Made by a program: the position numbers and the translations under genes
Shown: positions 36,042-52,653 of the stretch, piece by piece
How the letters are laid out: each line of letters starts with the position of its first letter
How positions within the stretch are numbered: position 1 is the first letter of the stretch
From: Candidatus Cloacimonadales bacterium
GTDB lineage: Bacteria; Cloacimonadota; Cloacimonadia; Cloacimonadales; DAONDQ01
Assembly (NCBI GenBank): GCA_963662275.1
Contig: OY759316.1
Span: forward strand, 1,664,001-1,728,000
Direction: 5' to 3'
Length of the DNA: 64,000 nucleotides
The notes under the pieces: model-generated
Database searches by the model: none
The model's input: only the letters and a program-made list of their open reading frames with translations
What the model was told of the DNA's origin: nothing

Positions 36042-36421
36042 CTTGTTCCTTTTCATTCATTTCAATAGAGTACCATTTTTTGTCGAGGGGGTTTTATAGT
36101 CAAGGCATGATAATGATTTAAATGAACTTCCCCTAAAAGCAAATAACTACAAGCTTCCTCATATTCTACCAGGGAATATGAAATCAATTACAAATAACGC
36201 ATCTTCTTAAGCAAATCTAAAATACTTCATGAATCGTGGCAGCATCGTTTACGTTGCTTTTTACGGAATTAGAAGAGAAGCCACCGCCTGAAGTCCCTCC
36301 CACACAGCTAAAGGAGTTGCCACAAGTGTAGTCGCAATTTGTGACCTCAAGTTGGGGGCGCGTAGTCAAGAAACACTTGACAACACTCATGTATCATTTA
36401 GGTTGTTAATAAGAGGTAACA

Positions 36422-36688
36422 ATGCCAACAATAAGTATGTTTTTTGGAATAATCATCAGGATGTATTGTGGAAATGCGGAACACAATCCACCACATTTTC
36501 ATGCATATTATCAGGAATATACAGCAACATATGATATTGTGCAGGAAGCTTTTCTGTCTGGTAATCTACCTTCAAAGCAATCTAAGATTGTGGAAGCCTG
36601 GGCTGCCATTCATAAAGATGATCTCATTGCTGATTGGCAATTGGCAACAAACGGTGAATTGCCTTTACCCATTGAACCTCTTAAATAG
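36422..36688 (+). CDS. DUF4160 family protein (putative TA toxin)
   Basis: MPTISMFFGIIIRMY...EHNPPHFHA...IEPLK. Confidence 0.85.
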   Translation: MPTISMFFGIIIRMYCGNAEHNPPHFHAYYQEYTATYDIVQEAFLSGNLPSKQSKIVEAWAAIHKDDLIADWQLATNGELPLPIEPLK

Positions 36689-36696
36689 GATTATAT

Positions 36697-36912
36697 ATGA
36701 TTAAACCAATAAAAGTAACCCCTTTAGATGACTATGTTCTTGAACTGACAATGTCGGATATGACGATTAAAAAGTTTAACGTTAAGCCATTCCTTAACAA
36801 AGGAAAGTTCAAAGAATTGATGGATATTAATCTCTTCCGCCAGGCAAGAATCTCTTTCGATGCCATCGAATGGCCCAATGGGGTAGATATTGATCCTGAT
36901 CTGCTGATATAG
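36697..36912 (+). CDS. DUF2442 family protein (putative antitoxin)
   Basis: V.PLDDY.LEL...F..L....LF......AIEWPNGVDIDP; directly after DUF4160. Confidence 0.8.
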   Translation: MIKPIKVTPLDDYVLELTMSDMTIKKFNVKPFLNKGKFKELMDINLFRQARISFDAIEWPNGVDIDPDLLI

Positions 36913-37026
36913 CGCAGCTCTGAACTATTCCCTATTAGCTACTCCCTATTCCCTTATTCAATTCTGCCCTGTCAGCTGTCCGCTGTAAGCTGTCACCTTC
37001 TGTATCGTGGTGATTACTTCAGGAAT

Positions 37027-37383
37027 CGTGGCAGCAGCACTCATGGTTATACTTATAGCGGAAGTAATGACATTGCAACTGTCGCATGGTATTATTCCAA
37101 TTCCGGTAATACGACTCATACAGTTGGCATCAAGGCAGAAAATGAATTAGGTCTGTATGATATGACCGGCAATGTCAACGAGTGGTGTTGGGACATTTTT
37201 GACGTTTATCCGAGTAACTCTCAAAATAATCCACACGGTGCTATCACTGGGTCTGACCGTATTTACCATGGTGGTGGCTGGGGCAGCAGTCCAGGCAACT
37301 GTACCGTTTCCAGTCGGATTAATGCGGGTGCTACTAGCTACGGCAATAGACTCGGATTTCGTCTTTGCAGGAATTCCAATTAA
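37027..37383 (+). pseudogene. C-terminal fragment of an FGE-sulfatase/SUMF1 (C-type lectin fold) protein
   Basis: In frame RG...YTYSGSND..VAWY..NS...TH.VG....NELGLYDMTGNVNEWCWD...HGGGW...RLGFRL. N-terminal part absent. Confidence 0.75.
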
Positions 37384-37386
37384 TTT

Positions 37387-37713
37387 TTAATTAGCTACTG
37401 CCCCGCAGCATTTCTTAAATTTCTTCCCGCTCCCACAGGGGCAGGGATCATTACGTCCAATCTATATTTTGAGTATGATCTGGTAAGACACTTCCGGGGC
37501 ATAGATTAGAGCTTTTTCCTGTATCTTTGACTCTAACATATAATCCATTATAATGGCAATCTGCTGTTTAACCGGCAAGCCATCCCAAGTGAGTTCTTTA
37601 ATCGAAGTCTTATTTTTGAAATATTCATATCTTTCTTCTGATACAAGCTCTTTTAAATAGCTCTTTAAACTGAAATAATTCTTTGGCAAAGGTTTAGCAT
37701 CTGATGTCACCAT
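37387..37713 (-). pseudogene. Internally deleted SEC-C domain protein paralog
   Basis: N-terminus homologous to 43667..44920, then TAG, then in-frame [24 protein letters not shown]. Confidence 0.8.
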
Positions 37714-38344
37714 AATGAAACTCCTATACTTATAAAACATACTTTAGGATGTTTTCTTGAATAAATAAATCAGAAAAATGGAAAAACTCGTCAATTAAAT
37801 TCATATATATATTTTTGGTTACATGATTTAAGTGATTCAACTCATATGAATCTCGAAGTGATGAAACACGATAGCCCATAGCGTCAGCTATGGGTAAAGA
37901 AGCCTCCAAACCTTTGAACCTCGGCAGGGGTGACACATCTGGAAATTCGAAGGACGAAGTTCGAAGGGGGAATCTTGATCGCAATTTGCTACTTTAAGCG
38001 GATGGTAGAAAAACAGAAAGAGAGTCACAAAAAATACTTGGGAAAAAGAAATGAATAACAACAACAATAGAACCAAACCACTATCGCTCATAGGAGCGGT
38101 AGTCCTGCGGTCGTTCTGCGGTAGTCCTGCGGTGCTGCTCTGGTTCTTTTTAAAGTGGAATCCTTGTAAGTTCGAAACTGTAACGCCTTTTGTAACGCGT
38201 TATTCCATAACGTGTCCCGCTGAATTCATTCAGTTCAATTGTAGCGTACATTGGTAATGTGTTGTATTCGATAATGGTATTATCGAAATGTTTCTGCATC
38301 GGGGATTACCAATCACCTATGATAAAAGAATACCATTCTATGTT

Positions 38345-39251
38345 GAATCTCGCAGAGATGAAAGATCATAGCCTGTAGTGGAATGAAATGGAACTACTTG
38401 CAGAAGGTGTTAGGTGCTAGGTGTTAGTAAGGAAGGAAATAGGGATTAGGGAATCGTTCTGATTGAATTCAAGAAGCGTTAAACCAATAAACAAAGATAT
38501 CCTTCATTCTGAATCTCGCAGAGATGAAAGATCATAGCCTGTAGTGGAATGAAATGGAACTACTTACAGAAGGTGTTAGGTGTTAGGTGCTAGGTGTTAG
38601 GTGCTAGGTGTTAGTAAGGAAGGAAATAGGGATTAGGGAATCGTTCTGATTGAATTCAAGAAGCGTTAAACCAATAAACAAAGATATCCTTCATTCTGAA
38701 TCTCGCAGAGATGAAAGATCATAGCCTGTAGTGGAATGAAATGGAACTACTTACAGAAGGTGTTAGGTGTTAGGTGCTAGGTGTTAGTAAGGAAGGAAAT
38801 AGGGATTAGGGAATCGTTCTGATTGAATTCAAGAAGCGTTAAACCAATAAACAAAGATATCCTTCATTCTGAATCTCGCAGAGATGAAAGATCATAGCCT
38901 GTAGTGGAATGAAATGGAACTACTTACAGAAGGTGTTAGGTGTTAGGTGCTAGGTGTTAGTAAGGAAGGAAATAGGGATTAGGGAATCGTTCTGATTGAA
39001 TTCAAGAAGCGTTAAACCAATAAACAAAGATATCCTTCATTCTGAATCTCGCAGAGATGAAAGATCATAGCCTGTAGTGGAATGAAATGGAACTACTTGC
39101 AGAAGGTGTTAGGTGCTAGGTGTTAGGTGATAGGTGTTAGTAAGGAAGGAAATAGGGATTAGGGAATCGTTCTGATTGAATTCAAGAAGCGTTAAACCAA
39201 TAAACAAAGATATCCTTCATTCTGAATCTCGCAGAGATGAAAGATCATAGC
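38345..39251. repeat. Tandem array of 166-187 bp units (5 complete, 6th interrupted by IS110)
   Basis: Units start at 38345, 38511, 38698, 38871, 39044 and 39224. Periods 166/187/173/173/180 differ by the number of TAGGTG[T/C] heptamers. The 6th unit resumes at 40991. Confidence 0.95.
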
Positions 39252-39333
39252 TTACTATAGGAAGGTTAGAAAATTAAGGTAGAAAAACCTCCCTCGTTGA
39301 TATACATAGATCAAATCAACAAAGGAGGTAACA

Positions 39334-40611
39334 ATGATTACCACATCAAAATCTAACCCAAAGAGGTTTTTTGTCAACTCAGAAATGATGCTTGTTGGCA
39401 TTGATATCAGCAAGCACAAACACAGTGTGTATTTTTGTGATTTTACAGGTGAACGGAAGCGTAAGCCATTTTTTATTACAAACAATCATGATGGTTTTCA
39501 GTATCTGCTAAAAGAAGCAGAACAGCAAAAGCGTTTGTGGAATCTGAACGAGATTGTATTTGGAATGGAACCAACAGGTTCATATGTAAAGCCACTCCAG
39601 TACTTCTTGGAAGAACGCTGCTATCAAATCCAAAGCATCAACCCATTACACACTAAAAGATGGAAGGATATTGAAGATAATCATCCATCCAAGAATGATT
39701 TGAAAGACAGTATTATCATTACCTCTCTGTTAAGAATGGGCAAGAGCATCCATCATCGGAGACCTGAAGGTGTTTTCGCGGAGTTGAACAACTATGCAGC
39801 TTATTATCACCAGTTAATCACAGATATTCGCAGGCAGAGGAACTATCTGGAAGCCTCTTATGCCTGTTACTTTCCTGAATTGAGTAACTTTTTCAAATTT
39901 AACAGTACGGGAGTAATGTATATCATGGAGTGTTTTCCTCTTCCTCAGGATATCGTAAATGCAGGATATGAGAATTTTCTGAAGATTATGAAAACAAAAA
40001 GCAAAGGGTGCATAGCTACAGAGAAGCTTCACAGTTTATATCAGGTATCTCTAACAAGTATTGGCATGAGTCAGGGAGCGGATAGTGCGAGAGTGGTCAT
40101 AAATGCGATCTATGAGGATATCAGCTATAAACAATACCATCTCAAACAAATCAAAACAGCAATCATGACATGTGTAGATAAAATCAGTTATGGATCGTTA
40201 TTGGTGACAATACCTGGTTTGAGTAAAGTATCAGTGGGGTTAATTCTGGCGGAGACTGGAGATATCAATCAATATGGTCGATATCAGGATTTAGTCAAAC
40301 TTGCCGGATTGAGTTTAAAACACAATCAATCAGGAGAATACCATGGGCAATATCATATCTCTAAGGTAGGAAGAGTAAGGTTGCGAAGGATCTTGTATAT
40401 GCTTACTCTGGAAATGATTATAAACAATCAATTAATCAATCAGATATATAATTATCAAGTAAAAAAGCGAGGTAATAACAAGGTCAAAACTATCGTTTCT
40501 TTGAGCAGTAAATTACTGGGAATCATGTACTCAATGGTTAAATATGAAAGGTCGTTTGATCCTGAACAGCGAAAGCTATATGCAGGTTATTTAACTGAAA
40601 ATAATCAGTGA
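39334..40611 (+). CDS. IS110 family DEDD recombinase
   Basis: VGIDISK, GMEPTG, KNDLKDS, IPG, AGL...QSG, ISKVGR..LR. AAGGAGG RBS. Confidence 0.92.
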   Translation: MITTSKSNPKRFFVNSEMMLVGIDISKHKHSVYFCDFTGERKRKPFFITNNHDGFQYLLKEAEQQKRLWNLNEIVFGMEPTGSYVKPLQYFLEERCYQIQSINPLHTKRWKDIEDNHPSKNDLKDSIIITSLLRMGKSIHHRRPEGVFAELNNYAAYYHQLITDIRRQRNYLEASYACYFPELSNFFKFNSTGVMYIMECFPLPQDIVNAGYENFLKIMKTKSKGCIATEKLHSLYQVSLTSIGMSQGADSARVVINAIYEDISYKQYHLKQIKTAIMTCVDKISYGSLLVTIPGLSKVSVGLILAETGDINQYGRYQDLVKLAGLSLKHNQSGEYHGQYHISKVGRVRLRRILYMLTLEMIINNQLINQIYNYQVKKRGNNKVKTIVSLSSKLLGIMYSMVKYERSFDPEQRKLYAGYLTENNQ

Positions 40612-40886
40612 GCCAAGAAAAAAAAGTAGTCAAAAAATAATGGAGGTGTTTAGATTGGTTCACTCGCCGGATGATGTAGTCATTAGGCACTAAGGCTTGT
40701 TTACAAGACCTTCTACCATAGCTCATTATAGCACACCGGCGGGTATTATCTCAGATAGGATAAAGTAAGAATAGGATACCATCAGAAGGTAATCCAGTAT
40801 ATCAGCAAGATCGGGATGTAGAACCAAGAGAGCTTTGATAAGTAATATTCGATTTAATCATAGAATTCAGATCGAAAATCAGCGTC

Positions 40887-40941
40887 TCTGGAACCCTGCA
40901 ATGACGCTTCGGTACCCTACGCGTCATTGCAGGGTTCCAGA
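40887..40941 (+). terminator. Perfect 21-bp stem-loop near the IS110 right end (terminator or ncRNA 3' boundary)
   Basis: tctggaaccctgcaatgacgc - 13 nt loop - gcgtcattgcagggttccaga. Confidence 0.6.
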
Positions 40942-41085
40942 AAGCCAAGTACTATGAATATATTATAATATATAACTATCTAACTATATCAGCCTGTAGT
41001 GGAATGAAATGGAACTACAGGGAAGAGTCCCCCCAAACCATTACAATCTCGTAGAGATGACACATCTGGAAGTGCGAAGATCACC

Positions 41086-41185
41086 GTAACGCGGTATTCA
41101 TACCGTGTTTCGCTGAATTAATTCAGTATTATTCAGAGCAGATACAATATAAATAATGCGGTACACGGTATAAATACCGCGTTAC
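41086..41185. repeat. REPIN-like inverted pair (gtaacgcggtattcataccgtgt / acacggtataaataccgcgttac)
   Basis: Same family at ~38192, 42794, 42845-42940 and 45029-45129. Confidence 0.75.
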
Positions 41186-41336
41186 AAACTTGATATCACA
41201 ATTTGCGACCTCAAGATTGTCTACGCACTGCATAGGCTTTTCTCTGTAATGCTTAATTTTTCATTATTAATTCTTAATGCATGTCTTCCAATCTGCTAAT
41301 CTGCTCTGATAATTCTTAATTTTTAACTTTTAATTT

Positions 41337-42689
41337 TTAATTGCTTACTGCCCCGCAGCATTTCTTATATTTCTTTCCGCTGCCGCATGGACATGGATCG
41401 TTTCTTCCGATTTTCGGAGCATTAGAAATGACCGGTTGAACAACAAATTCAATCTCATCTTTCTTTTTTGGTTTATATAATTCATCATCATCATCAAAGA
41501 ACGCTTTATACTCACCAATTGGGTCATCAGAGTTACTCCAGGGATCTTCTCCATCAGTAAACGGTATATCCTGATCCCAATCTATGGAAGAGTTTTTGTC
41601 ATAAAAATCGAAGCGAAGCTGATCTGCATTTTCATCGATGATGACAGGTTTAACGGATAATGAGAGTTCCTTTGGTGTATGACCTCTATGTATCCAGGAG
41701 CGGTAATGATTATAGTAATCAGTTACTGTAATATAGAGTCTGTTCTTTGTTTCAATATTGTAATCCTCAAGGAATAGGTCATCATACAAATCATTGATTT
41801 CGAATGGTTTCGCCCCATAATTGAAATCCATTGTGATATGTAAAATAAATACCATCGCGGCTGCTGGTTCAAGCCCGAAAGTACTTATCAGTAAGTCTTT
41901 TAATGCCAGATATTGAGGTGTTTCTTCAAAATAATCCTCTTTACCATACATCATTAACTCATCTTCCTTAGGGATATATAGTTTTTTGTACTTAATTCCA
42001 TGAGCCAATTTTTCGTAATCGTCCATATTTATAAGATTACATAGATTGACTATTCTGCCATCGATAAAACTGAAATATGGACATAGCAGACTATATTCTG
42101 TGATATATGAGTTCAATTGTTCATCAGTTAGGATATCTTCTTTCCAAAAGAAATGTGACCTATAAATTTTAATTAAATTCGCTGGTTCAAAGATTCCATA
42201 GAAATTCAGACATGGATTAATACGGGAAATGAGTGGTTGAACTAAGCTTCTTCCCAATTCTACTGTCTTTTCCTTAATTGCATACAAAACTTCTGCAATT
42301 TCGTCAAAAAGGATATACGTAGATTTTATCTGCTTTCGCTTATTCGGATTAGGATAGGAATCAATGCGGTAGATCATGAAATTATAATTCAAGTACCAGT
42401 ATCCGTTATTGATAGTGTTCTGTTCCAAGGGAATTTGTGAGCTGATACTCTGAAGTATGGTCAAGGAGGCTTCCGGTGCATATATAAGTACTTTTCTGAT
42501 ATATTCTTCATTGACAACGTATCTCTGCATTAAATCAACTTGCTGATGAGAATCTAATTTATCCCATTCATCTTCAATCATTTCAGTTTTCACACCGAAT
42601 AAAATAAAACGTTCAACCGAAGAAAGCTCTTTTAGATAACTTCTTAAACTAAATTTATCTGCAGCGATTTTCTTTTTGGATTTATTCAT
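41337..42689 (-). CDS. SEC-C motif protein (paralog 2)
   Basis: [19 protein letters not shown]-terminal [20 protein letters not shown]. Confidence 0.85.
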
Positions 42690-42844
42690 ATTTTTGCTTT
42701 GAAACTCCTTGTTTGTGTAAATCTGGAAATTTTAAAAATTAGTCAATTAATTTTGCTTAGCATTGCTCTGAGAATTGCAACGGGATGCAAACCGTAACGC
42801 GTTATTTATAACGTGTAACGCTGAATTCATTCAGTTCTTTACCT

Positions 42845-43356
42845 GTAACGCGTTATTCCATAACGTGTGCTGCTGAATTCATTCAGTTCCGTGCAGATAC
42901 TTTATAAATAAAGCGATACACAGTATGAATACTGCGTTACGATGTCTGACAATCTTGAAGTCGCAATTTGCGATATCAAGATGCAGTGGAAGAAGACAAT
43001 CGAACTATTGAGAAATCCTCAATAGTTGAGGTTACAATCCAAGTATAATCGGCATTTGAACGGCAGTTATTAACTAATCCTTAATAACTGAAAGAGGACA
43101 GATTCCCATCGGGAAGATAGATTCTAACACCGGATTTCAATCCGATGAAATGTAATGAGAGTGACTCCCTATTTCCCCCTTCTTTTGTAAAAGAGGGGGG
43201 AAATAGGGGGAGTTAGTTCTGCTCTGCTAATCTTTACCTGTCGTCCCCACTGGACTGATATGTTAGGGTGTACTCTGTCGCCGGATTGCTTCTTGAACTT
43301 GAAGTCTCAATATGCGACCTCAAGATTCTGAAAATCAAGAAACCCTTGACAATGCT
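42845..43356. repeat. ~510-bp mosaic palindrome block, duplicated at 45029-45547 + 47409-47453
   Basis: Same order in both copies: gtaacgcg REP pair, ORF6N-type palindrome, two RhuM-type palindromes, ggatttcaatcc element, tttccccct..agaggggg hairpin, ORF6N-type palindrome, TTGACA promoter. Confidence 0.9.
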
Positions 43357-43390
43357 ATTGTCTCATTTATGTTGTTATTAAGAGGTAACA

Positions 43391-43609
43391 ATGCCAACAA
43401 TCAAACCCATAAAAGTTACTCCCTTAGATGACTATGTACTTGAACTGACGATGTCTGATATGACGATTAAAACATTCAACGTAAAACCATATCTAAGCTT
43501 GGGTAAGTTTCAGGAGCTAAAGGACATCAGTCTTTTTCGACAGGCAAGAATCTCTTTCGATGCCATCGAATGGCCTAATGGTGTAGATATTGACACTGAT
43601 CTACTCTGA
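43391..43609 (+). CDS. DUF2442 family protein (orphan; starts with the DUF4160-type MPTI)
   Basis: Closely similar to 36697..36912. Upstream leader matches that of the DUF4160 gene at 36422. Confidence 0.8.
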   Translation: MPTIKPIKVTPLDDYVLELTMSDMTIKTFNVKPYLSLGKFQELKDISLFRQARISFDAIEWPNGVDIDTDLL

Positions 43610-43666
43610 TAGTCTGTTTCTGCCAATCTTCCATCTTAAATCTTCAATCTTAAATTCTGCCAATTC

Positions 43667-44920
43667 TTAATCAGCCACTGTCCCGCAGCATTTCTTATAC
43701 TTCTTGCCGCTACCGCAGGGACATAGATCGTTTCGACCTATCTTATCAGCTTTAGAGATAACAGGCAGTACTTGCTCTTCATCATCATCAAATTCATCAT
43801 AGTCATCAGGTTCTTCAACATCAGCGAAATCAAAAAACCGCTGGTCAGAGTCTATCTTTAGAATCCTGTATGGTTTCTCAGAAGATTTCTTTTTTATAGG
43901 TTCAATTCCATGCATTTTGTAATCAATTTCAAGAGGTGTGTGCCCTCGATTGAACCAAGTCCTAAAATGATTAGAAAAATCAAACCATAATTCTGTATAA
44001 TAATTTTTTAGTTCTAATTCAACCTTATTGATCTCCAAATTGATGATTTGTAGCGGATTCCTACCAAAGTGAAGTTCTGCAACCACGCGAGAGATAGTTT
44101 CAAGCGCAAAATCTTCCTCCAATTGAAGATCATATATCATGAATCGAGCTAACTCCATGAATTGAGGCGAGAAATTAATGCAGGAGATACCATAGCTCAT
44201 TAACTCAGATTTTGGGGGAACATATAATGGTTTGTCTTTGATTCCCTGGTGTAAGGAACGATAAGCTTCTAAAGTAACTCTGAGCACAATCTGATCATCC
44301 TTCAGAACCAGATCATTGTAGTAATGTTTATAGTTTTTCAGCAATTTCCGCAATTCCTGGTCAGGTAGAGAATCGATATTCTGTGATCTATAAATCTTGA
44401 TCAGGTTCTCGATCTCAAGTATGCCATAAAAGTTCAGGCAAGGTTCAATGTAGGAAATGAATGGCTGGATTACTTTTCTTTTAGTTTCAAGTTTCGTTAG
44501 GTTGAAAGAAGTCAGAATTGGAAGTAAATCTTCAAAAATAAAAAATTCATCCAGTTCCTCTTTATCTCTACATATTTCAAGGAAATTGCATTTATTATTA
44601 ATGATGAAGTTATTATAGAGATAGATTTCTCCATCTTCTGCTTCTTTTCGGGTTAGTGGCTTTTTGTTCAATAGCTTGAGTATTATGTGATAAGATATTT
44701 CAGGTGTATAGATGAGTATTGTCTCCAGGTTCTTGGGCTTTGTAAAATATTCGAACATGATGTTGATCTGCATTCTAACAGGTAAACCTTCCCAGATAAG
44801 TTCTTTGATAGAAGTCTTTGATTGAAAATATGCATACCTTTCATAGGATTCAAGCTCTCTCAAGTAGCTCTTTAGCCCGAAGTAATTCTTTGGTAAAGGT
44901 TTAGTATCTGATGGTACCAT
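43667..44920 (-). CDS. SEC-C motif protein (paralog 3)
   Basis: [38 protein letters not shown]. Confidence 0.85.
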
Positions 44921-45547
44921 AACAAACTCCTTATTCCGTATAAATCTGGAAATGGAATAAATCAGTCAATTAAATTTGCTTCTTATTGGATTGAGCCAAG
45001 AAAAGGAACTCTAAATGTAACGCGGTTTGTAACGCGGTATTTATACCGTGTTCCGCTGAATTCATTCAGTTCTCTACAGAGCAGATACTTTATAAATAAA
45101 GCGATACACGGTATGGAATACCGCGTTACGATGCGTTCCAATCTTGAAGTCACAATTTGCGACCTCAAGTTGGGGTGGAAGAAGAACAACTGAACTTTTG
45201 AGAAATCCTCAATAGTTGAGGTTACAATCCAACTATAATCAGCATCTTAATGTCAGTTATTAACGAATCCTCAATAACTGAAAGAGGACAGATTCCCATC
45301 GGGAAGATAGATTCTAACACTGGATTTCAATCCGGTGAAATGTACTGAGAGTGACTCCCAATTTCCCCCTTCTTTTGTAAAAGAGGGGGATAAAGGGGGA
45401 GTTAGTTCTGCTCTGCTAATCTTCATCTGTCATCCGCACGGGACTGATATGTTAGGTTGTGCTTTGGTCGCCGGATTGAAATCCGAGCGTTAATATGTTG
45501 CATCCGTACCGGATTGTTTCTTGAACTTGAAGTCGTATATTGCGAAC

Positions 45548-47408
45548 GAGACTGTTCATGAAGTTATTCATAATATTCAATAAGTTAGAAAGTAGCAAGT
45601 TGAAAAAAGTGGTCGAAACGGTCATAATTTAACATACCTTCCAGAATTGACAGATAAGCTCTGCTAAGGACACCAAATCACAAGTTAAGCTTTTTGACTA
45701 AAATTGAAAAACACGCGATTATAAGTAATGTTTCGAAGCCGTTTCTGACTAAATGTGTAGTTAAAATCATATAAAATAGTTCTTTACAAGTTTTTTGCTA
45801 TAGCTTCAATGGCATTTGTTACCTGGTAACAAAAGGGAGGATATTATGACAAAAAAACACTCCAATTCAAGAAGCGGTAAGTGTTAGTCATGAAAGTAAC
45901 CAATACCATGTAAGTATTAACGTACCATTTTCATTCACTTTGCCTGAGACAACATCAAACCACAAGTTCTTAATAGCGTTTCTACGCTTATTAGTAGGAA
46001 TAGGCGGAGACAACCTCCTTACACTTCAGCAAATAGCTGATCTGTTTAACTACGCAGACCGCAGGAATGTACATAATTTCTGGCAAGAGTTTGAGCAGCA
46101 TGGTCATGATATCCTGGCATATTTAAGCCGGAAAGTTGACCTGCTGGAGTGTATTCCTCAGATCGAGAATTTTGTTATCAATAACCTGCTTTTACCTTTA
46201 AATGTCATGTATCAGGAGTTCATCAGCCATCATGATTTTAAAATGTCCTATACCACTTTCTGCAAATATGCTTCTCAGGTCAATTCTCTGTCTGTAGTTA
46301 AGCAAGCTCAGAAGCTTCTTCTGAAAAAGACAGTAGGCGGTGATGCTGTACATCTGCTGAAACTGCTTGCCGGTCAGCAGAATACACCTGTTATCTGTGA
46401 CAGACTCCTGGAACAAATGAAGACTGCTAAAGGCAATACATCCCATAGAACCGCCGATGCAAAGCCGTTCCATAGTCTGGAACGCAAGAACCTGTGTCTG
46501 CTGGTACATTACCTGGTTGGAAGCGGTATGAACTTCGAGACGATAGCTTTGCTGCTCAACACCTGTAAAGCTACAGTCTCAAATCTCTGGCATGAAATCG
46601 CTGACCTGCAGAGCCTGATTCTGAACTCAATCGGTAAGTGGAGCGGAAAGATCAGCATTGATGAGAAATATGTGAAGATCAAAGGTATTCCGTACTATGT
46701 CATCAGTATTGTTGATTTTGTGACTCACATCCCTCTGTTTTGTGAGTTGTATCCTGACACAAAGAAAGAATCATTCGAAGCATGTTTCAGAACCTTCAGA
46801 CAGCTCTACAGGAAAGATCCAACCCTGATTGTCAGTGATGGCAGTAAATCGTTAGCAGTTGCAAGAAAAACAGTGTTTCCAAAAGTCCATTACCAACTCT
46901 GTAAGTTCCATAAGATACGAAATCTCTTCAAAAGAATCAGTCAATGTCATCTCCCTGAAGACAGGGACAAGTTCTTTAAGAAGAGGATTATGAAAGCTTT
47001 CCGAAGAGAAACGGCGGGCGGAAGGAAAAAGGGTATCGCAAGCCTGACAGCTATTACTCCCCCAACCGCCGCCGAATACATCAAAAGCAATATCATTAGT
47101 GATTGGAGACACCTCAGCAAAGGTTTGACTTCCAATGTCTCTGAACGCTGGAACCGCAAAATCAAGAAGGTGACATCCGGTAGATTTGGACTAAAATCTG
47201 AAGAAACCACCCGCAACCTTGTGTTTTCGCTTTGGTTCAAAGAACTGGTCGATAAAGGTCAACCAATCATGCGTCAGGAATCACTTTTAGCAAGTTTAAA
47301 TATCTCCCGCATATGTCAAGAAAATGTGGATTGGTCGCACTTAGACCACTTTTTCTCTGTCACTACCAATAAGGCTGCGTAAAATGGAGGTTAATTTTGA
47401 ACAGTCTC
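45548..47408 (+). mobile_element. Mutator-like (IS256/ISH6-related) insertion sequence
   Basis: Terminal inverted repeats gagactgttca / tgaacagtctc; 8-bp target-site duplication TTGCGAAC at 45540-45547 and 47409-47416. Confidence 0.9.
45846..47382 (+). CDS. DDE transposase; RBS-led ATG at 45846 is out of frame across an A7 run (track ORF 45940..47382)
   Basis: SIDEKYV, IVSDG, QLCKFH (CxxH), TSNVSERWN. GGGAGG RBS precedes ATG 45846. Confidence 0.8.
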
Positions 47409-47500
47409 TTGCGAACTCAAGATGCTGAAAATCAAGAAAAACTTGACAATGCTTGCTTACTTGTTTACTTGTTAATATGTTAGATAAAGCAGGAGTATCC

Positions 47501-47737
47501 ATGAAAACCAAAAAGAAACCAGACATTGAAGATAGCATATCTGATTTAGCTCGAGAAGCAACTAGTGAAGCTTATAAGAAGGCTATTGATGCAGGCTATA
47601 ACGTTGCGATCCGCAAAGGCAATCAAATTGTGGAAGTAAATAAGGATGGTATCGTAAGAGTGATTAAAGAAGTTGCTCCTTTGGTTGCAGTGAAAAAAGG
47701 TACAAAATTTACTACGAATGGTAAGTCAAACTCCTAG
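47501..47737 (+). CDS. Small hypothetical protein, putative antitoxin partner
   Basis: AGGAG RBS before ATG 47501; overlaps the downstream P-loop gene. Confidence 0.6.
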   Translation: MKTKKKPDIEDSISDLAREATSEAYKKAIDAGYNVAIRKGNQIVEVNKDGIVRVIKEVAPLVAVKKGTKFTTNGKSNS

Positions 47738-48464
47738 GGTTAGATTGTTTGCTGGTCCGAATGGATCAGGGAAAAGTACTATCAAGGCTAAGCTAAGCAC
47801 TAAGTTAATCGGAATATTCATTAATCCTGATGAAATTGAAGAACAAATCAAAAATGAACATACAATTAATTTCGATACCTACCAAATTGGCATAACTAAA
47901 CAGGAAATATCTGACTTTCTATCAAAATCTTCTGTATTACAAAAAGATGGAAAGAATCTGCAATTGGATGATCTTGTTATTGAAGATAATAAGATTTCAT
48001 TTATGAAAACTGCCATTAACTCCTATTATGCTTCAGCTATTGCAGAGATGCTTAGAAATTATCTCTTAAAATCTGGTATATCATTTTCGTTTGAATCGGT
48101 TATGTCACATGAAGATAAGGTGCAATTTCTGAAGAAAGCTCAAGAGTCAGGATATCGGACATATCTGTATTATGTTGCTACAGATGATCCTGCTATTAAC
48201 ATCATAAGAGTAAAGAATAGAGTTAACGCTGGAGGGCATCAGGTTCCGGAGCGGAAGATTATCGACAGATATTACAGATCAATCAATCTACTTAGAGAGG
48301 CTATAAAATATACAAATAGAGCCTATATCTTTGATAATTCTGGTGAACAAAGTATTTTGATGGTAGAAATCACAAATGGAACAGATTGGGAAGATAAGTC
48401 CGATATTATTCATTCCTGGTTTGTGGAGACGTACAATTATTTCCACTCTGATGCAAAGAAATAG
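47718..48464 (+). CDS. Zeta-toxin-like P-loop kinase/ATPase (COG4185-like)
   Basis: FAGPNGSGKST, INPDEI, FSFESV, RV..GGH.VP, IFDNS. Confidence 0.8.
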   Translation: MVSQTPRVRLFAGPNGSGKSTIKAKLSTKLIGIFINPDEIEEQIKNEHTINFDTYQIGITKQEISDFLSKSSVLQKDGKNLQLDDLVIEDNKISFMKTAINSYYASAIAEMLRNYLLKSGISFSFESVMSHEDKVQFLKKAQESGYRTYLYYVATDDPAINIIRVKNRVNAGGHQVPERKIIDRYYRSINLLREAIKYTNRAYIFDNSGEQSILMVEITNGTDWEDKSDIIHSWFVETYNYFHSDAKK

Positions 48465-48678
48465 ATACTGTCTGAGAATTCTCTTCTCTGCTCTGCTCAA
48501 TATTCCATTTTCCATCTTCCATTATGCACGTTCTTAACTCTTCAATCTTAAATCTTTCTCGTTTTCCTTGACAAAACAATTACTATTATTCTTTTATTCT
48601 ACAATATTTACATAGTATTGAATCACATAGGAGAAACTTGAAATCGCAAATTGCGATATCAAGATTGAGGGGGGAAGT

Positions 48679-49194
48679 ATGAATGAGCTAATACTAGCAG
48701 AAACTCAAATCGAAAAGCAAATCATCGAAATCAGAGGCATGAAAGTCATCCTCGATTCTGATTTAGCGATATTGTATGGTGTTGAAACACGAGTTTTGAA
48801 CCAACAAGTTAAACGTAACTTCGAACGCTTTCCAGAAGACTTCATGTTTCAACTAACTTCAGAAGAATTTGCAATCTTGAAATCACAATTTGTGATATCA
48901 AGATGGGGTGGTCGTAGAACTCCTCCTTATGTTTTCACAGAACATGGTGCTCTAATGGCAGCATCAGTACTGAATACTCCCCGTGCTGTTGAAATGAGTG
49001 TTTACATTGTCCGTACATTTGTTAAGCTACGCAGTTTGTATTATCAGCATAAAGAACTGGCAGGTAAAATTGAAGAACTGGAAGCAAAGCTGACTACCCA
49101 TGATCACGCTCTCAACCAAATACTCAAAACTCTGAAACTACTCTTAGAAAAACCTGTTGAAGAAAAACGGAAACCAGTTGGATTTAAGAAATGA
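48679..49194 (+). CDS. ORF6N domain DNA-binding protein
   Basis: RGMKVILDSDLAILYGVET..LNQQVKRN.ERFPEDFMFQLT..E...LKSQFVISRWGGRR.PYVFTEHG. Confidence 0.92.
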   Translation: MNELILAETQIEKQIIEIRGMKVILDSDLAILYGVETRVLNQQVKRNFERFPEDFMFQLTSEEFAILKSQFVISRWGGRRTPPYVFTEHGALMAASVLNTPRAVEMSVYIVRTFVKLRSLYYQHKELAGKIEELEAKLTTHDHALNQILKTLKLLLEKPVEEKRKPVGFKK

Positions 49195-49251
49195 TCTGAT
49201 GATTACTTCTAAATCTTCAATCTACCATCTTCAATCTTACATTTTGTACCG

Positions 49252-50265
49252 TTACTTCTTCTTTTCCAGTTTCTTCACGTTTTCCACAACTTCCACAAAA
49301 TGCTTTTCAACAGGTGAAGGCTGTTCGATTTGTTCCTGATGCCATTTCTCATATTCTGTACGAGCTTTATCTATTGCATCTTCATGTGCTATCTTACCGG
49401 CATGGGTAAGAATATCACGTCCTGTAAGTTTCAGGAATTCGTCGAGTTTAGTGATCCAGTCTTTCATGTGCATGGGAATTCGATTCAAAGCTTGTAGTTC
49501 TGCAAAGTCAAGGTACATGGTCACAATTCGTTTCAAGATATCCAATTCATCCGCATTTAAATAGTTTTTCGCTACTTCTGCATCTGCTTTATTCGGAGAA
49601 TCACCAAGCCAATTTGTCATTCCCATGTTTGGTTTATCAGCGCTTGCTCTTTCATAAATGATCTCTGCTGCTGTATGACCATGACTTGCCCAATGCATCT
49701 TATTCTGCATGACTTTAAAGAATGAATGCGATACTTCTGTTTGCGGATCATAGTCTATACTGGTGGCATAAATATCCAGTATCTTTCGCCAGAAGACTTT
49801 CTCGGAAGAACGGATATCTCTGATGCGTGCAAGTAATTCATCAAAGTAATTACCGCCACCGGATTCTTTCAAACGCTTATCATCCAGGACGAAGCCCTTG
49901 ATTATATATTCCCGTAACTGCTTTGTTGCCCATTGACGGAAATGAGTTGCCACAGAAGATTTGATACGATAACCGATGCTGAGTATCATATCAAGATTAT
50001 AGTGTTTTGTAGTGTATGACTTGCTGTCGAGGGCAGTTATTAAGTAATCCTTAATAACTGAATTTGGTTTTAGCTCATGTTCATCGAAGATGTTTTTAAT
50101 ATGAATATTGATGTTTTGAACTGTAGTTTGAAACAAATCAGCAAGCTGCTTCTGATTCAGCCATATAGTTTCGTTTTCCAATCGAGTCTCAATATGAATC
50201 TGACCATCTTTGCTTTGATATAAAAGGAATTCGGTATTTGACTGTACTTTCTTTGACTCTTTCAT
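49252..50265 (-). CDS. Virulence RhuM family protein (COG3943-like)
   Basis: ETIWLNQKQLADLF, HIKNIF, YNLDMILSIGYRI.S..A.HFRQWAT, GFVLDDKRLK, RIRDIRSSEK, QNKMHWA. Confidence 0.92.
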   Translation of the reverse strand: MKESKKVQSNTEFLLYQSKDGQIHIETRLENETIWLNQKQLADLFQTTVQNINIHIKNIFDEHELKPNSVIKDYLITALDSKSYTTKHYNLDMILSIGYRIKSSVATHFRQWATKQLREYIIKGFVLDDKRLKESGGGNYFDELLARIRDIRSSEKVFWRKILDIYATSIDYDPQTEVSHSFFKVMQNKMHWASHGHTAAEIIYERASADKPNMGMTNWLGDSPNKADAEVAKNYLNADELDILKRIVTMYLDFAELQALNRIPMHMKDWITKLDEFLKLTGRDILTHAGKIAHEDAIDKARTEYEKWHQEQIEQPSPVEKHFVEVVENVKKLEKKK

Positions 50266-50637: not shown

Positions 50638-51780
50638 TTACAGTTTACCGCCATCAAAGCAATTTGCCAAAAACAACAGCGACCAAGGCGGTGATCTTGG
50701 TTTTCCGGTAATTGAAGCATGCTGTGTCATCTTTGATTTGCAATTAGGGCAGAGGTCTTTTTCAAATTTGGGAATTACAAAAGTTTTAGCTGTCTGATTC
50801 TTGTCATTAGAATCGGACTTTGCTGGGAAAAAGCTGTTGACCATCTCCCAGACAGATTTTGCCGCCGGACTGAGAAATCCGTAGTATCTGATTTTCTGAA
50901 ATCCCTGCGGCAGAACATGCATCAGGAACTTATTGATAAACTCCACGGAGTCGACGCTTTTAAAGGCGAATTTAGCTGAACCTGCCGGCTTGTATTTAAA
51001 GGTTACCAGCCCGTCCTTTTCCCAAAGGATGCGATTGTTGGTGATGGCGGTCCGATACACATAATTGGCCAAATAAGTCAGAGCCTCCCGACCTTTTCCG
51101 ACGGGTCGGGAGTCTGTGACAAACTCTTTTTGCTGCCAGACTAGCGGGGATATCCGACCAAACAGATGCTGATTTTCCAGTCGAAGCAAATCACGGAATT
51201 TTGCCCGGTAAATCACCGAAAGAGCTTTGACCGGAATCAGGAACTTATTGCCTGCTTTTTGCCATTCCTTTCGTTCTTTATTCCAAGCTCCGCCGGGGAC
51301 TATATAATGAATATGAGGATGATATTCAAGCTGCCTTGTCCAGGTATGAAGTACCCCGGTAAAGCCTGAAACGCCACCGGCATATTTGGGATCTGAAAGC
51401 AATGTCTTTAAGGCTTCAGATGATGCTTTGAACTGAAGATCATAAAGCAGTTTCTGATTTGACAGGCATGTTTTGTGCAGTTCCCGGGGTATGGTGAAAG
51501 TTACCATGAAGTACTTAACCGGCAGCAGTTTGGCAAGCTGCTTTTCCAGCCATTTCGCTGAATCATTACGGCCACACTTCGGGCAGTGACGGTTTTTGCA
51601 GGAATGATAGGAATAATGCAGTTCCGCACATTCCTGGCATAAATAGACTTCTCCGCCCAGTTCAGGTGTCCGGCAAAGGAGAATATCTCTGATCGCTCTT
51701 AAATGGCTTTCCGGTGACTGGTTTCCATATTTTTCCAGATACTCGGACAGGTTGTTTTTGAGAATCCTGCTAAAATCCAT
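50638..51780 (-). CDS. IS91/IS801-like HUH (Y2) transposase with Zn-binding domain
   Basis: CRT..LGG, HSCKNRHCPKC, LHTW....HPHIH, YLANY, HVLP.GF.KIRYYG, PRSPP. Confidence 0.9.
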   Translation of the reverse strand: MDFSRILKNNLSEYLEKYGNQSPESHLRAIRDILLCRTPELGGEVYLCQECAELHYSYHSCKNRHCPKCGRNDSAKWLEKQLAKLLPVKYFMVTFTIPRELHKTCLSNQKLLYDLQFKASSEALKTLLSDPKYAGGVSGFTGVLHTWTRQLEYHPHIHYIVPGGAWNKERKEWQKAGNKFLIPVKALSVIYRAKFRDLLRLENQHLFGRISPLVWQQKEFVTDSRPVGKGREALTYLANYVYRTAITNNRILWEKDGLVTFKYKPAGSAKFAFKSVDSVEFINKFLMHVLPQGFQKIRYYGFLSPAAKSVWEMVNSFFPAKSDSNDKNQTAKTFVIPKFEKDLCPNCKSKMTQHASITGKPRSPPWSLLFLANCFDGGKL

Positions 51781-52653
51781 TTACATCTTATTCATCAGTT
51801 CATTGATGATTTTACATGACTGCTCTCGGGAAACGTTAGTCAAATGCACGTATACCATGGTCGCTCTAAGACTTTCGTGCCCGAGCAAGTCTTTGATGAT
51901 GATGATACTGACACCTGCTTCCAATAAATGTGTGGCATAAGAATGTCTGAGTGTATGACAGGTTACATGCTTAGGGATGCGTGTCTCCTTTAAGGCTGAC
52001 TTCAGAGCTGACCGAAGAGTTTGGACAGAAATCTGGTTCGAGGTTGTCATTCTGTTAATATCAGCCTGTCTGGTGCTTCTGCTCGGGAATAAAAGCTGTC
52101 TGTTCTGATGGGTTTTCCAATATTCCCGGAGTTCCTGATACAATTTTTCAGGCAGAGGTATTGACCTGTCTTTGTTGCCTTTGGATTGCCTTACCGTGAT
52201 GGTCATCAATTCCCGGTTGATATCGGCTATTTTAATCTTGACTGCTTCCGAAATCCTTAATCCGCATTGATAGGTAAGAGTCAGTAAGAGTCGATAATCA
52301 TAAGTATGAATGCGGGAGATAAGCATTCTAACTTCGTCTGTGGTCAGAATCACAGGAAGTTTGTGCTCAATCTTTGCCTTAAAAAAGGTAAAATCCTCTT
52401 GCCTGAAACCAACAACATGGATGAAAAAAAATCTGATGCCATAATAGGCTGATTTTAAACTCTGAGGACTATAATTCTTGACGTTATGCAGGTAGACAAA
52501 ATATGTTCTTACCTGTTCAATAGATAGTGTGCCGGGGTCTTGACCATAATATGATGCTAAAGAAGTGACTTGTCTGATGTAATTGTATTTTGTCTCTCGG
52601 GACACGCCTCGAAGATCAAGGCACTCTAAAAAGCGAACTTCGTATGATTCCAT
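51781..52653 (-). CDS. Tyrosine recombinase/integrase
   Basis: GLRISE, KGNKDR, HTLRHSYATHLLE, LGH, VY. Confidence 0.92.
   Translation of the reverse strand: MESYEVRFLECLDLRGVSRETKYNYIRQVTSLASYYGQDPGTLSIEQVRTYFVYLHNVKNYSPQSLKSAYYGIRFFFIHVVGFRQEDFTFFKAKIEHKLPVILTTDEVRMLISRIHTYDYRLLLTLTYQCGLRISEAVKIKIADINRELMTITVRQSKGNKDRSIPLPEKLYQELREYWKTHQNRQLLFPSRSTRQADINRMTTSNQISVQTLRSALKSALKETRIPKHVTCHTLRHSYATHLLEAGVSIIIIKDLLGHESLRATMVYVHLTNVSREQSCKIINELMNKM

Follow-up and report, generated by a model that had tools for sequence, protein, structure and literature searches.

A conserved palindrome within RhuM genes varies together with the predicted recognition helix encoded beside it

Genes of the RhuM family carry a DNA palindrome at one place in their coding sequence, and its bases change together with residues of a helix that the same gene encodes a short distance upstream. 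We describe this relation for the rhuM gene, and for copies of its palindrome lying between genes, in a 64,000-nucleotide stretch of DNA from a Candidatus Cloacimonadales bacterium (GenBank assembly GCA_963662275.1, contig OY759316.1, positions 1,664,001 to 1,728,000), here called the window, and across homologues in other genomes. To judge from these sequence comparisons, the palindrome is most likely the docking site of RhuM, and the loose copies look like leftovers or decoys and not like spare cassettes. By analogy with known systems, we suggest, with a probability of about one half, that RhuM is a dimeric winged-helix anti-phage protein with a self-encoded site, that this site would restrain it in the manner of BstA and its DNA element aba, and that scars of the site persist in genomes and decoys of it in phages.

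The in-gene palindrome and the helix-to-site code

The gene (rhuM, minus strand, 49252..50265) encodes 337 amino acids and belongs to the RhuM family, matching PF13310 at 364 bits against a curated cut-off of 33.7 and the PADLOC model PDC-S05 with an E value of 2e-144 (a profile match). The product is predicted to have a winged-helix N-domain and a helical C-domain and to form a homodimer. As a preliminary description of this DNA had stated, the codons for SVIKDYLIT form a palindrome (minus strand, 50034..50060). It is 27 bp long and odd-centred, pairs at 12 of 13 positions, occupies codons 69-77 and encodes the first wing strand. Its half-sites (TATTAAG) surround a 5-bp centre in the architecture 7 bp + 5 bp + 7 bp, and we propose that it serves as an operator. 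The codons of the predicted recognition helix (TTVQNINIH, residues 47-55; minus strand, 50101..50127), whose residues covary with the half-site, precede the palindrome by 40 nt.

In the predicted structure (pLDDT 82.7), a helix-turn-helix spans residues 38-61 and the wing residues 71-89. The predicted homodimer scored 0.73, as compared with 0.00 for the best control; at least 89% of contacts recurred between runs, with pLDDT of at least 76, and 20 of 30 solved pairs but 1 of 23 single chains attain the mark applied. These models predict a dimeric helix-turn-helix binder.

The palindrome is conserved at the DNA level across the family. All of the first 80 homologues have it at one place, in 37 versions. 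At least 10 of 13 pairs form at a single register in 264 of 268 distinct RhuM genes, versus 14 of 2062 control windows, and with genes added later the count is 333 of 343, which answers positively the question, raised in the preliminary description, of whether homologues are palindromic here. When codons were resampled synonymously, 8.2 pairs were expected versus 11.3 observed, with p<0.05 at 123 of 143 sites; DNA symmetry is therefore maintained beyond the needs of the protein. Matches to the RhuM N-domain make up 25,033 clusters at 50% identity. An additional gene with a palindrome at the equivalent place (L008:232, ELSPICRQF) is Bro-N-like, a family assignment that we presume.

Two observations bear on what form of the palindrome matters. 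Mismatches within pairs 3-12 of 139 sites are of the G-T type in 23 cases and of the A-C type in 19, without strand bias, which favours double-stranded DNA over RNA or a single-strand hairpin. Elements that act as such a hairpin (REP, attC or a terminator) were considered and rejected, because the strand-biased tolerance of G-T that they would entail was not found. Moreover, one DNA core occurs in two reading frames behind the same helix: RhuM genes encoding CANFAHT and NVQILHI there both have the helix KERSVITKH. A core found in genes of the ORF6N family, described below, is likewise translated in different frames (SQFVI vs ITICD). The peptide is thus secondary. The preliminary description had suggested self-recognition, and this idea is supported, although by way of the upstream helix-turn-helix (residues 47-55) and not through the peptide that the palindrome encodes.

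Covariation between site and protein is concentrated in the helix: 18 of the 20 top covarying DNA-protein column pairs fall in nine residues ending at the invariant His55. Counting back from His55, residue -1 goes with base 10 almost without exception (Glu with G10 in 97/97 genes; Arg or Lys with C10 in 73/74; Leu, Met, Gln or Ile with A10 in 82/83), and it tracks bases 9-11 as a whole, with CGG for Glu, GCA for Arg or Lys, AAG for Leu, Met, Ile or Gln, and CGA for Tyr. Residue -2 tracks bases 6-7 (Ser, GT; Asn, AT; Thr or Val, TG), and residue -5 tracks base 8. Residues -1 and -2 follow separate bases, and the table of helices and sites is factorial. The modular code pairs Glu with C, Arg or Lys with G, and Asn with A; contacts of Glu with C, Arg with G and Asn with A are textbook protein-DNA contacts. 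Wing type, in turn, goes with the outer bases (types A and B, see below) and with Phe or Tyr at position His+5.

This covariation is independent of descent and linkage, one cross control, given below, not being null. On a FastTree tree of the C-terminal part of RhuM (241 of 264 genes, after removal of short C-termini and duplicates), the half-site switches class 40 times or more. Independent pairs on this tree gave ratios of 11.9:0.6 of 13, 15:0 of 16, 12.9:0 of 16 and 10.6:0 of 14 in a first set and 18.8:0 of 19, 18.1:0.8 of 25 and 14.1:0 of 17 in a second, so that all seven tests point one way. As a control, synonymous codons between helix and site were treated in the same manner and had no link. 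Synonymous third bases within the site do sort with the helix (24/24, 9/9 and 9/12; 42/42 and 17/17), and frameshifted classes obey the code (8/8 and 4/4), which together exclude packing of the helix against the wing as the cause.

We then applied rules fixed beforehand to held-out genes from three other phyla and from plasmids (75 genes, 5 of 80 domains having been dropped as already in training; a further 6 of the 75 were excluded from the rule test for having fewer than 10 pairs). Both arms fit in 53 of 65 and 46 of 60 genes, where shuffled assignments had means of 19.8 and 17.5 and maxima of 34 and 30. Among genes with helices unseen in training, the rules fit 33 of 44 and 27 of 40. The link at synonymous bases, in frameshifted genes, on the tree and in held-out genes, with none at the linked synonymous codons, argues that it is the helix, not the palindrome-encoded peptide, that reads the site. 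That the helix recognizes the in-gene site, in double-stranded DNA, is well supported by these comparisons, and we consider it very probable.

Copies outside RhuM genes and palindromes of other families

Copies of the palindrome between genes had been reported for the window, and their sequences proved as described. An A-type copy (minus strand, 43064..43090) has 1 mismatch to rhuM, and the stretch 43062-43092 agrees with the gene at 30/31 nt; read in the RhuM frame, this copy is interrupted by a stop (SVIKD*LIT), and one of its half-sites is intact. The variant at 45254..45280 (minus strand), also A-type, has 3 mismatches. Each has a B-type neighbour 62 bases away (minus strand, 43002..43028 and 45192..45218), corresponding to the second palindromes reported at 43003-43027 and 45193-45217, which indeed read STIEDFSIVR and STIEDFSKVQ on the minus strand. 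The former, a near-cognate copy, has TATTGAG in both arms, and RhuM-like codons follow it (compare genes with ATIKDFLIVRL); the latter has one pair broken. The two A/B pairs represent one event, as both lie inside a duplicated intergenic block (cores 42996..43209 and 45186..45399, 91% identical) with ORF6N-type, B and A sites and REP-like hairpins. Three differences between the blocks fall within RhuM-type copies, and all are unpaired changes, none compensating.

Chance would produce 3e-7 such copies with at most 1 mismatch in the 4.38-Mb genome, or 3e-4 with at most 3. Two RhuM genes are present in this genome, and its RhuM-type sites total nine, a reversed control giving 1. The two allele classes attributed to the copies are apparent in the outer four bases (CAGT vs CAAC, both common among real RhuM genes) but not in the core TATT(A/G)A of the resident rhuM, which is common to all four; A and B are outer-flank types occurring with every specificity of RhuM gene. 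With 1-3 half-site changes from the neighbouring rhuM, the four copies are closer to it than about 94% of alleles are. The RhuM paralogue with STIEDFSIV for which a search had been suggested is not in the genome, both of whose RhuM genes lack this peptide. A promoter scan gave no excess over shuffles and no promoter-like site over the window's copies.

In the collected genomes, the flanks of loose copies run on as RhuM or ORF6N codons, which marks the copies as scraps of genes. Their places are the junctions of genes, either at -250 to -330 or immediately after a stop. For example, a pair of such scars in the hsdM-hsdS gap at G000:3139360 occupies the slot that RhuM holds at 355366. The expectation that copies track the gene holds weakly: 4 of 21 are cognate, but a 98%-complete genome (G039) has one copy and no RhuM. 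By eye, 2 of these 21 'orphan' rows sit in another gene or a pseudogene. A loose A-type pattern searched across 61 relatives returned mostly noise.

Viral contigs also contain the site. For one class, 25 of 25 matches have the exact spacing, 10 of them without RhuM within 2.5 kb, and a permuted half-site gave 0 matches at exact spacing. The STIEDFSIV allele has 15 viral matches, all outside RhuM genes. Four sites of mixed classes stand in tandem in one viral contig (L512), and phages ES18, HK639 and UPF_BP1 carry a site inside eaA/DUF551 genes, where it is read in another frame. When the pattern for the window's class was relaxed, 16 viral matches without the gene appeared; these were discarded because by estimate several could arise by chance.

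Some further arrangements of gene-free sites were noted. RhuM scraps consisting of an ATTCGA-class site and about 13 codons directly precede type III res-like genes at G000:929008 and 4016749, and G000 has no resident RhuM gene of the ATTCGA class. Direct repeats (L168:367-436 and 1516-1620; G037:C110) flank a gene that we read as KilA-N-like, with different site alleles in similar flanks. The same non-cognate site also lies on both sides of a RhuM gene at L032:9916 and 11034.

Similar palindromes occur in other families. The window's ORF6N gene (plus strand, 48679..49194; 171 amino acids) matches PF10543 and also PDC-S05 models, and is convergent with rhuM, as had been stated. It has an in-gene palindrome (plus strand, 48876..48902; 12/13 pairs) and an ORF6N-type site in its own leader (48637..48663, plus strand), 15 nt before the start codon. 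A scrap of the gene (plus strand, 45143..45188) retains the site and following codons (ILKSQFATSSWGGRRT, 81% to the gene), and gene-free ORF6N-type sites lie at 42954..42980 (plus strand) and at 36325, 41189 and 43298; in all, 7 of the 9 strong ORF6N-type sites of the genome are inside the window. A weak gene-free site at 41215..41241 (plus strand, 8/13 pairs) abuts an ORF6N-type site and is of DUF1016 type, resembling the site in the DUF1016 gene G000:914233. Among close ORF6N members, 14 of 15 have at least 10 pairs and 3 of 15 a leader copy; seven distant members have 8-10 pairs.

Palindromes are present in 19 of 20 DUF1016 genes, with a pairing of helix and site apparent by eye. The Escherichia coli K-12 member yhcG (L438:1828-2955) has three sites, with 12, 11 and 12 of 13 pairs, and dinD of the same strain has an even-centred palindrome with 11/13 pairs. 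Tandem in-frame sites lie in a variable linker of DUF1016 genes L412, L425 and L428. The DUF1016 genes G000:908481 and 913898 share the leader and palindrome of the window's ORF6N gene, a case of one site used across families. All four families match PADLOC candidate defence models. Profile comparison found no link among RhuM-N, ORF6N and DUF1016 (hhalign probability 2.8% for RhuM-N vs ORF6N); RhuM-N and ORF6N share the fold matches 8csh, 3ez9 and 8u1j at Z 4.7-5.2.

The surroundings are rich in repeats. At window positions 36300-48500, a unit recurs in tandem that combines a palindrome-rich block with SEC-C genes and with DUF4160/DUF2442 or zeta-like pairs, and 166-187-bp repeats lie at 38344-39320. 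A multi-copy insertion sequence at 45548-47408 (480-amino-acid DDE transposase, inverted ends gagactgttc, 8-bp duplication ttgcgaac) splits an ORF6N-type site (45526-45547 + 47409-47421), and its contig depth is about 30-fold above single copy. Upstream of rhuM, at 50638-52653, is an element with an IS91-like Y2 transposase and a tyrosine recombinase; its second copy (G000:906247-908262) adjoins a DUF1016 gene with an ORF6N-type leader site. Many REP-like palindromes of the GTAGAGACG type are found throughout G000, which also has an IS200-like transposase gene at G000:3137171-3137626.

Possible roles of the site

In the account that we prefer, the rhuM gene itself would contain the site that the RhuM dimer binds, 40 nt past the recognition-helix codons, and such close linkage would allow helix and site to travel together and diverge jointly into orthogonal specificities. 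Binding to the site might, as a weaker step in the argument, restrain RhuM as aba restrains BstA. Gene-free copies would be scraps of RhuM genes in which the site survived: as an antidote scar, since a cell could lose the gene without harm only where the site remained, or as a decoy that phages would gain from carrying. The window's four copies would be scraps that share the specificity group of the neighbouring gene and that, after duplication along with their block, are now drifting. We favour restraint because it accounts both for scraps that keep the site and for phages that carry it.

Several points weigh against this account. Covariation concerns recognition, not the effect of binding, and restraint, selection for scars and decoy action are argued by analogy. 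The tree is a FastTree tree only, and a cross control was not null (Asn at -2 vs C9, 5.9:0.3, median p 0.039). Held-out genes failed the rules in 12 of 65 and 14 of 60 cases, and in 11 of 44 and 13 of 40 with unseen helices. Gene-free copies are rare, being near 19 of 264 RhuM genes, and most are non-cognate; for the exactly cognate ones, 1.3 of 21 were expected by chance (p 0.038), and mean distance gave p 0.055. The window's four copies are decaying, and none of the 343 distinct RhuM genes has the half-site ATTGAG. In viral contigs, the window's own class has operator spacing in just 5 of 12 matches; ES18, HK639 and UPF_BP1 share one sequence and so represent one event; and mEp043 has no site over threshold. 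Fold scores are middling (Z 7.2-7.5), and the homodimer result may reflect likeness to DdrC, a protein discussed below.

All of the evidence for helix-site recognition fits autorepression equally well. The in-gene site would then be an operator that, either as a roadblock or as a partner in looping, limits the expression of a passenger gene without a promoter at whatever place it lands, and loose copies would be neutral relics or secondary operators with no part as antidote or decoy. Leader sites just before the ribosome-binding site (3 of 15 ORF6N genes; RhuM genes L076 and L088), the decay of the window's copies and the precedent of intragenic operators (lac O2 and that of purB) make this a serious possibility. 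However, leader copies are a minority and are often non-cognate, the promoter scan found nothing promoter-like over the window's copies, and autorepression accounts for the gene but not for scraps that keep the site and little else, nor for exact-spacing sites and mixed arrays in viral contigs that lack the gene. We regard it as the chief competing explanation, though rather less likely than restraint. A far less probable alternative involves no binding at all: the palindrome would be a mutational attractor, its symmetry maintained by template switching, or a selected hairpin, and its link to the helix would result from joint inheritance or helix-wing packing. Only 40 nt separate helix and site, central inversions do occur as allele pairs (RKFR/RNFR), and the symmetric ATTGAG copy is compatible with template switching. 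Yet the synonymous codons between helix and site are unlinked, the code is factorial (residue -2 with bases 6-7, residue -1 with bases 9-11) and survives frameshifts and synonymous changes, and G-T mismatches lack strand bias.

The preliminary description had also raised cassette diversification, in which loose copies would serve as silent alleles that, once exchanged into the gene, alter its product. Arrays of differing alleles (L168, L027 and L512) and the many changes of half-site class on the tree are what such swapping might leave. Nevertheless, a swap of the site alone would break its match to the helix, which is nearly never seen, as alleles change with the helix; copies carry stops, including one of those in the window, and decay; and most RhuM genes have no nearby copy. 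Public contigs from four sequencing runs list no difference at 50030-50065, the interval suggested for variant analysis, with the proviso that contigs drop rare variants. We consider cassettes highly improbable, and think equally little of the proposal that the palindrome-encoded peptide itself determines which palindrome is recognized. The segment does encode a wing strand, which in winged-helix proteins is next to DNA, and wing type does follow the outer bases and Phe or Tyr at His+5, so a minor role of the wing at the outer bases is possible; but one core in two frames with the same helix in RhuM, and again in two frames in ORF6N, speaks against the peptide as reader.

Extending DNA restraint beyond RhuM is a tentative step that we would not yet bet on. 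RhuM, YhcG/DUF1016, ORF6N and DinD might all be widespread one-gene defence modules whose antidote is an in-gene DNA site with a simple helix-to-base code. Loss or degradation of the site, by deletion or by phage attack on host DNA, would free the effector; genomes would keep scar sites, and phages would counter with single in-frame sites in accessory genes and with multi-specific decoy arrays.

For this very large family, nine residues appear to suffice for predicting the cognate DNA ligand, and the same design is seen in three other common restriction-operon passengers, among them yhcG and dinD of E. coli K-12. Should the site indeed restrain the protein, BstA-aba would generalize to a class of DNA-antidote defences, with a phage counter-defence that is DNA-only and non-coding. 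Even on the simpler reading, these genes represent a natural library of orthogonal helix-operator pairs, with coevolution of a protein-DNA code within 100 bp.

Comparison with known systems

RhuM-domain proteins (PDC-S05/Virulence_RhuM) are passengers of restriction-modification operons, for which a role as toxins in multi-level defence has been proposed (PMC3710099, PMC9881135); the former report proposes RhuM itself as a toxin in such operons. The window's gene is a member of this group, and anti-phage activity was shown for another member, with which T7 and T5 plating was cut about 1000-fold (10.1101/2024.09.26.614923). The accessible parts of these three reports mention no DNA site, palindrome or specificity classes, and the main text of 10.1101/2024.01.29.577857 mentions neither PDC-S05 nor RhuM. 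We found no description of the RhuM palindrome in the literature searched, a partial coverage with most subscription papers outside it.

By predicted fold, the best matches of the RhuM N-domain are MerR/Xis-type winged helices and DdrC, with middling Z scores. The DNA-binding domain of pSK1 Par (8csh, MerR/Xis-type) matches with Z 7.5 and a root-mean-square deviation of 2.3 over 53 aligned residues. DdrC (7qvb) matches with Z 7.2 and a deviation of 7.3 over 198 aligned residues (Foldseek E 6e-4), and its two-domain dimer layout is alike. Identity to these proteins is 10-19%, and the fold reveals no function.

REP/RAYT elements and the coding palindromes of Nematomorpha are dispersed or in-frame, as RhuM sites are (PMC6649704), and REP-like hairpins occupy the same intergenic blocks as RhuM-type copies. 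Those palindromes are high-copy or position-variable, whereas RhuM-type sites number nine per genome, keep one codon register and are tied to a helix.

A closer parallel is BstA, a prophage abortive-infection protein that is restrained by a cognate DNA element, aba, in its own locus and also in trans (PMC8585504). Like RhuM, BstA is an anti-phage protein with an N-terminal domain of helix-turn-helix type and a short DNA element in its locus; BstA variants have cognate elements, and aba acts as DNA, in trans at high copy (PMC8585504). Cognate pairs of protein and element likewise appear to exist within RhuM loci, as judged from sequence. The elements differ in that aba, 63 bp long and bounded by direct repeats at its ends, overlaps the start of the gene (PMC8585504), whereas the RhuM site is a 27-bp palindrome in frame at codons 69-77. 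RhuM also differs from BstA-aba in its readable helix-base code, in the usual location of its genes inside restriction operons and in having copies without the gene.

Auxiliary operators within genes are familiar from lac O2 in lacZ and the PurR site in purB, as are repressors that regulate themselves. The RhuM site resembles these operators as a palindromic site inside coding sequence that is predicted to be bound by a protein. Unlike them, it lies in the gene of its own predicted binder, right behind the recognition helix, and has diversified into many specificity classes. The in-gene RhuM site may thus be regarded as a variant of the intragenic operator or aba-like element.

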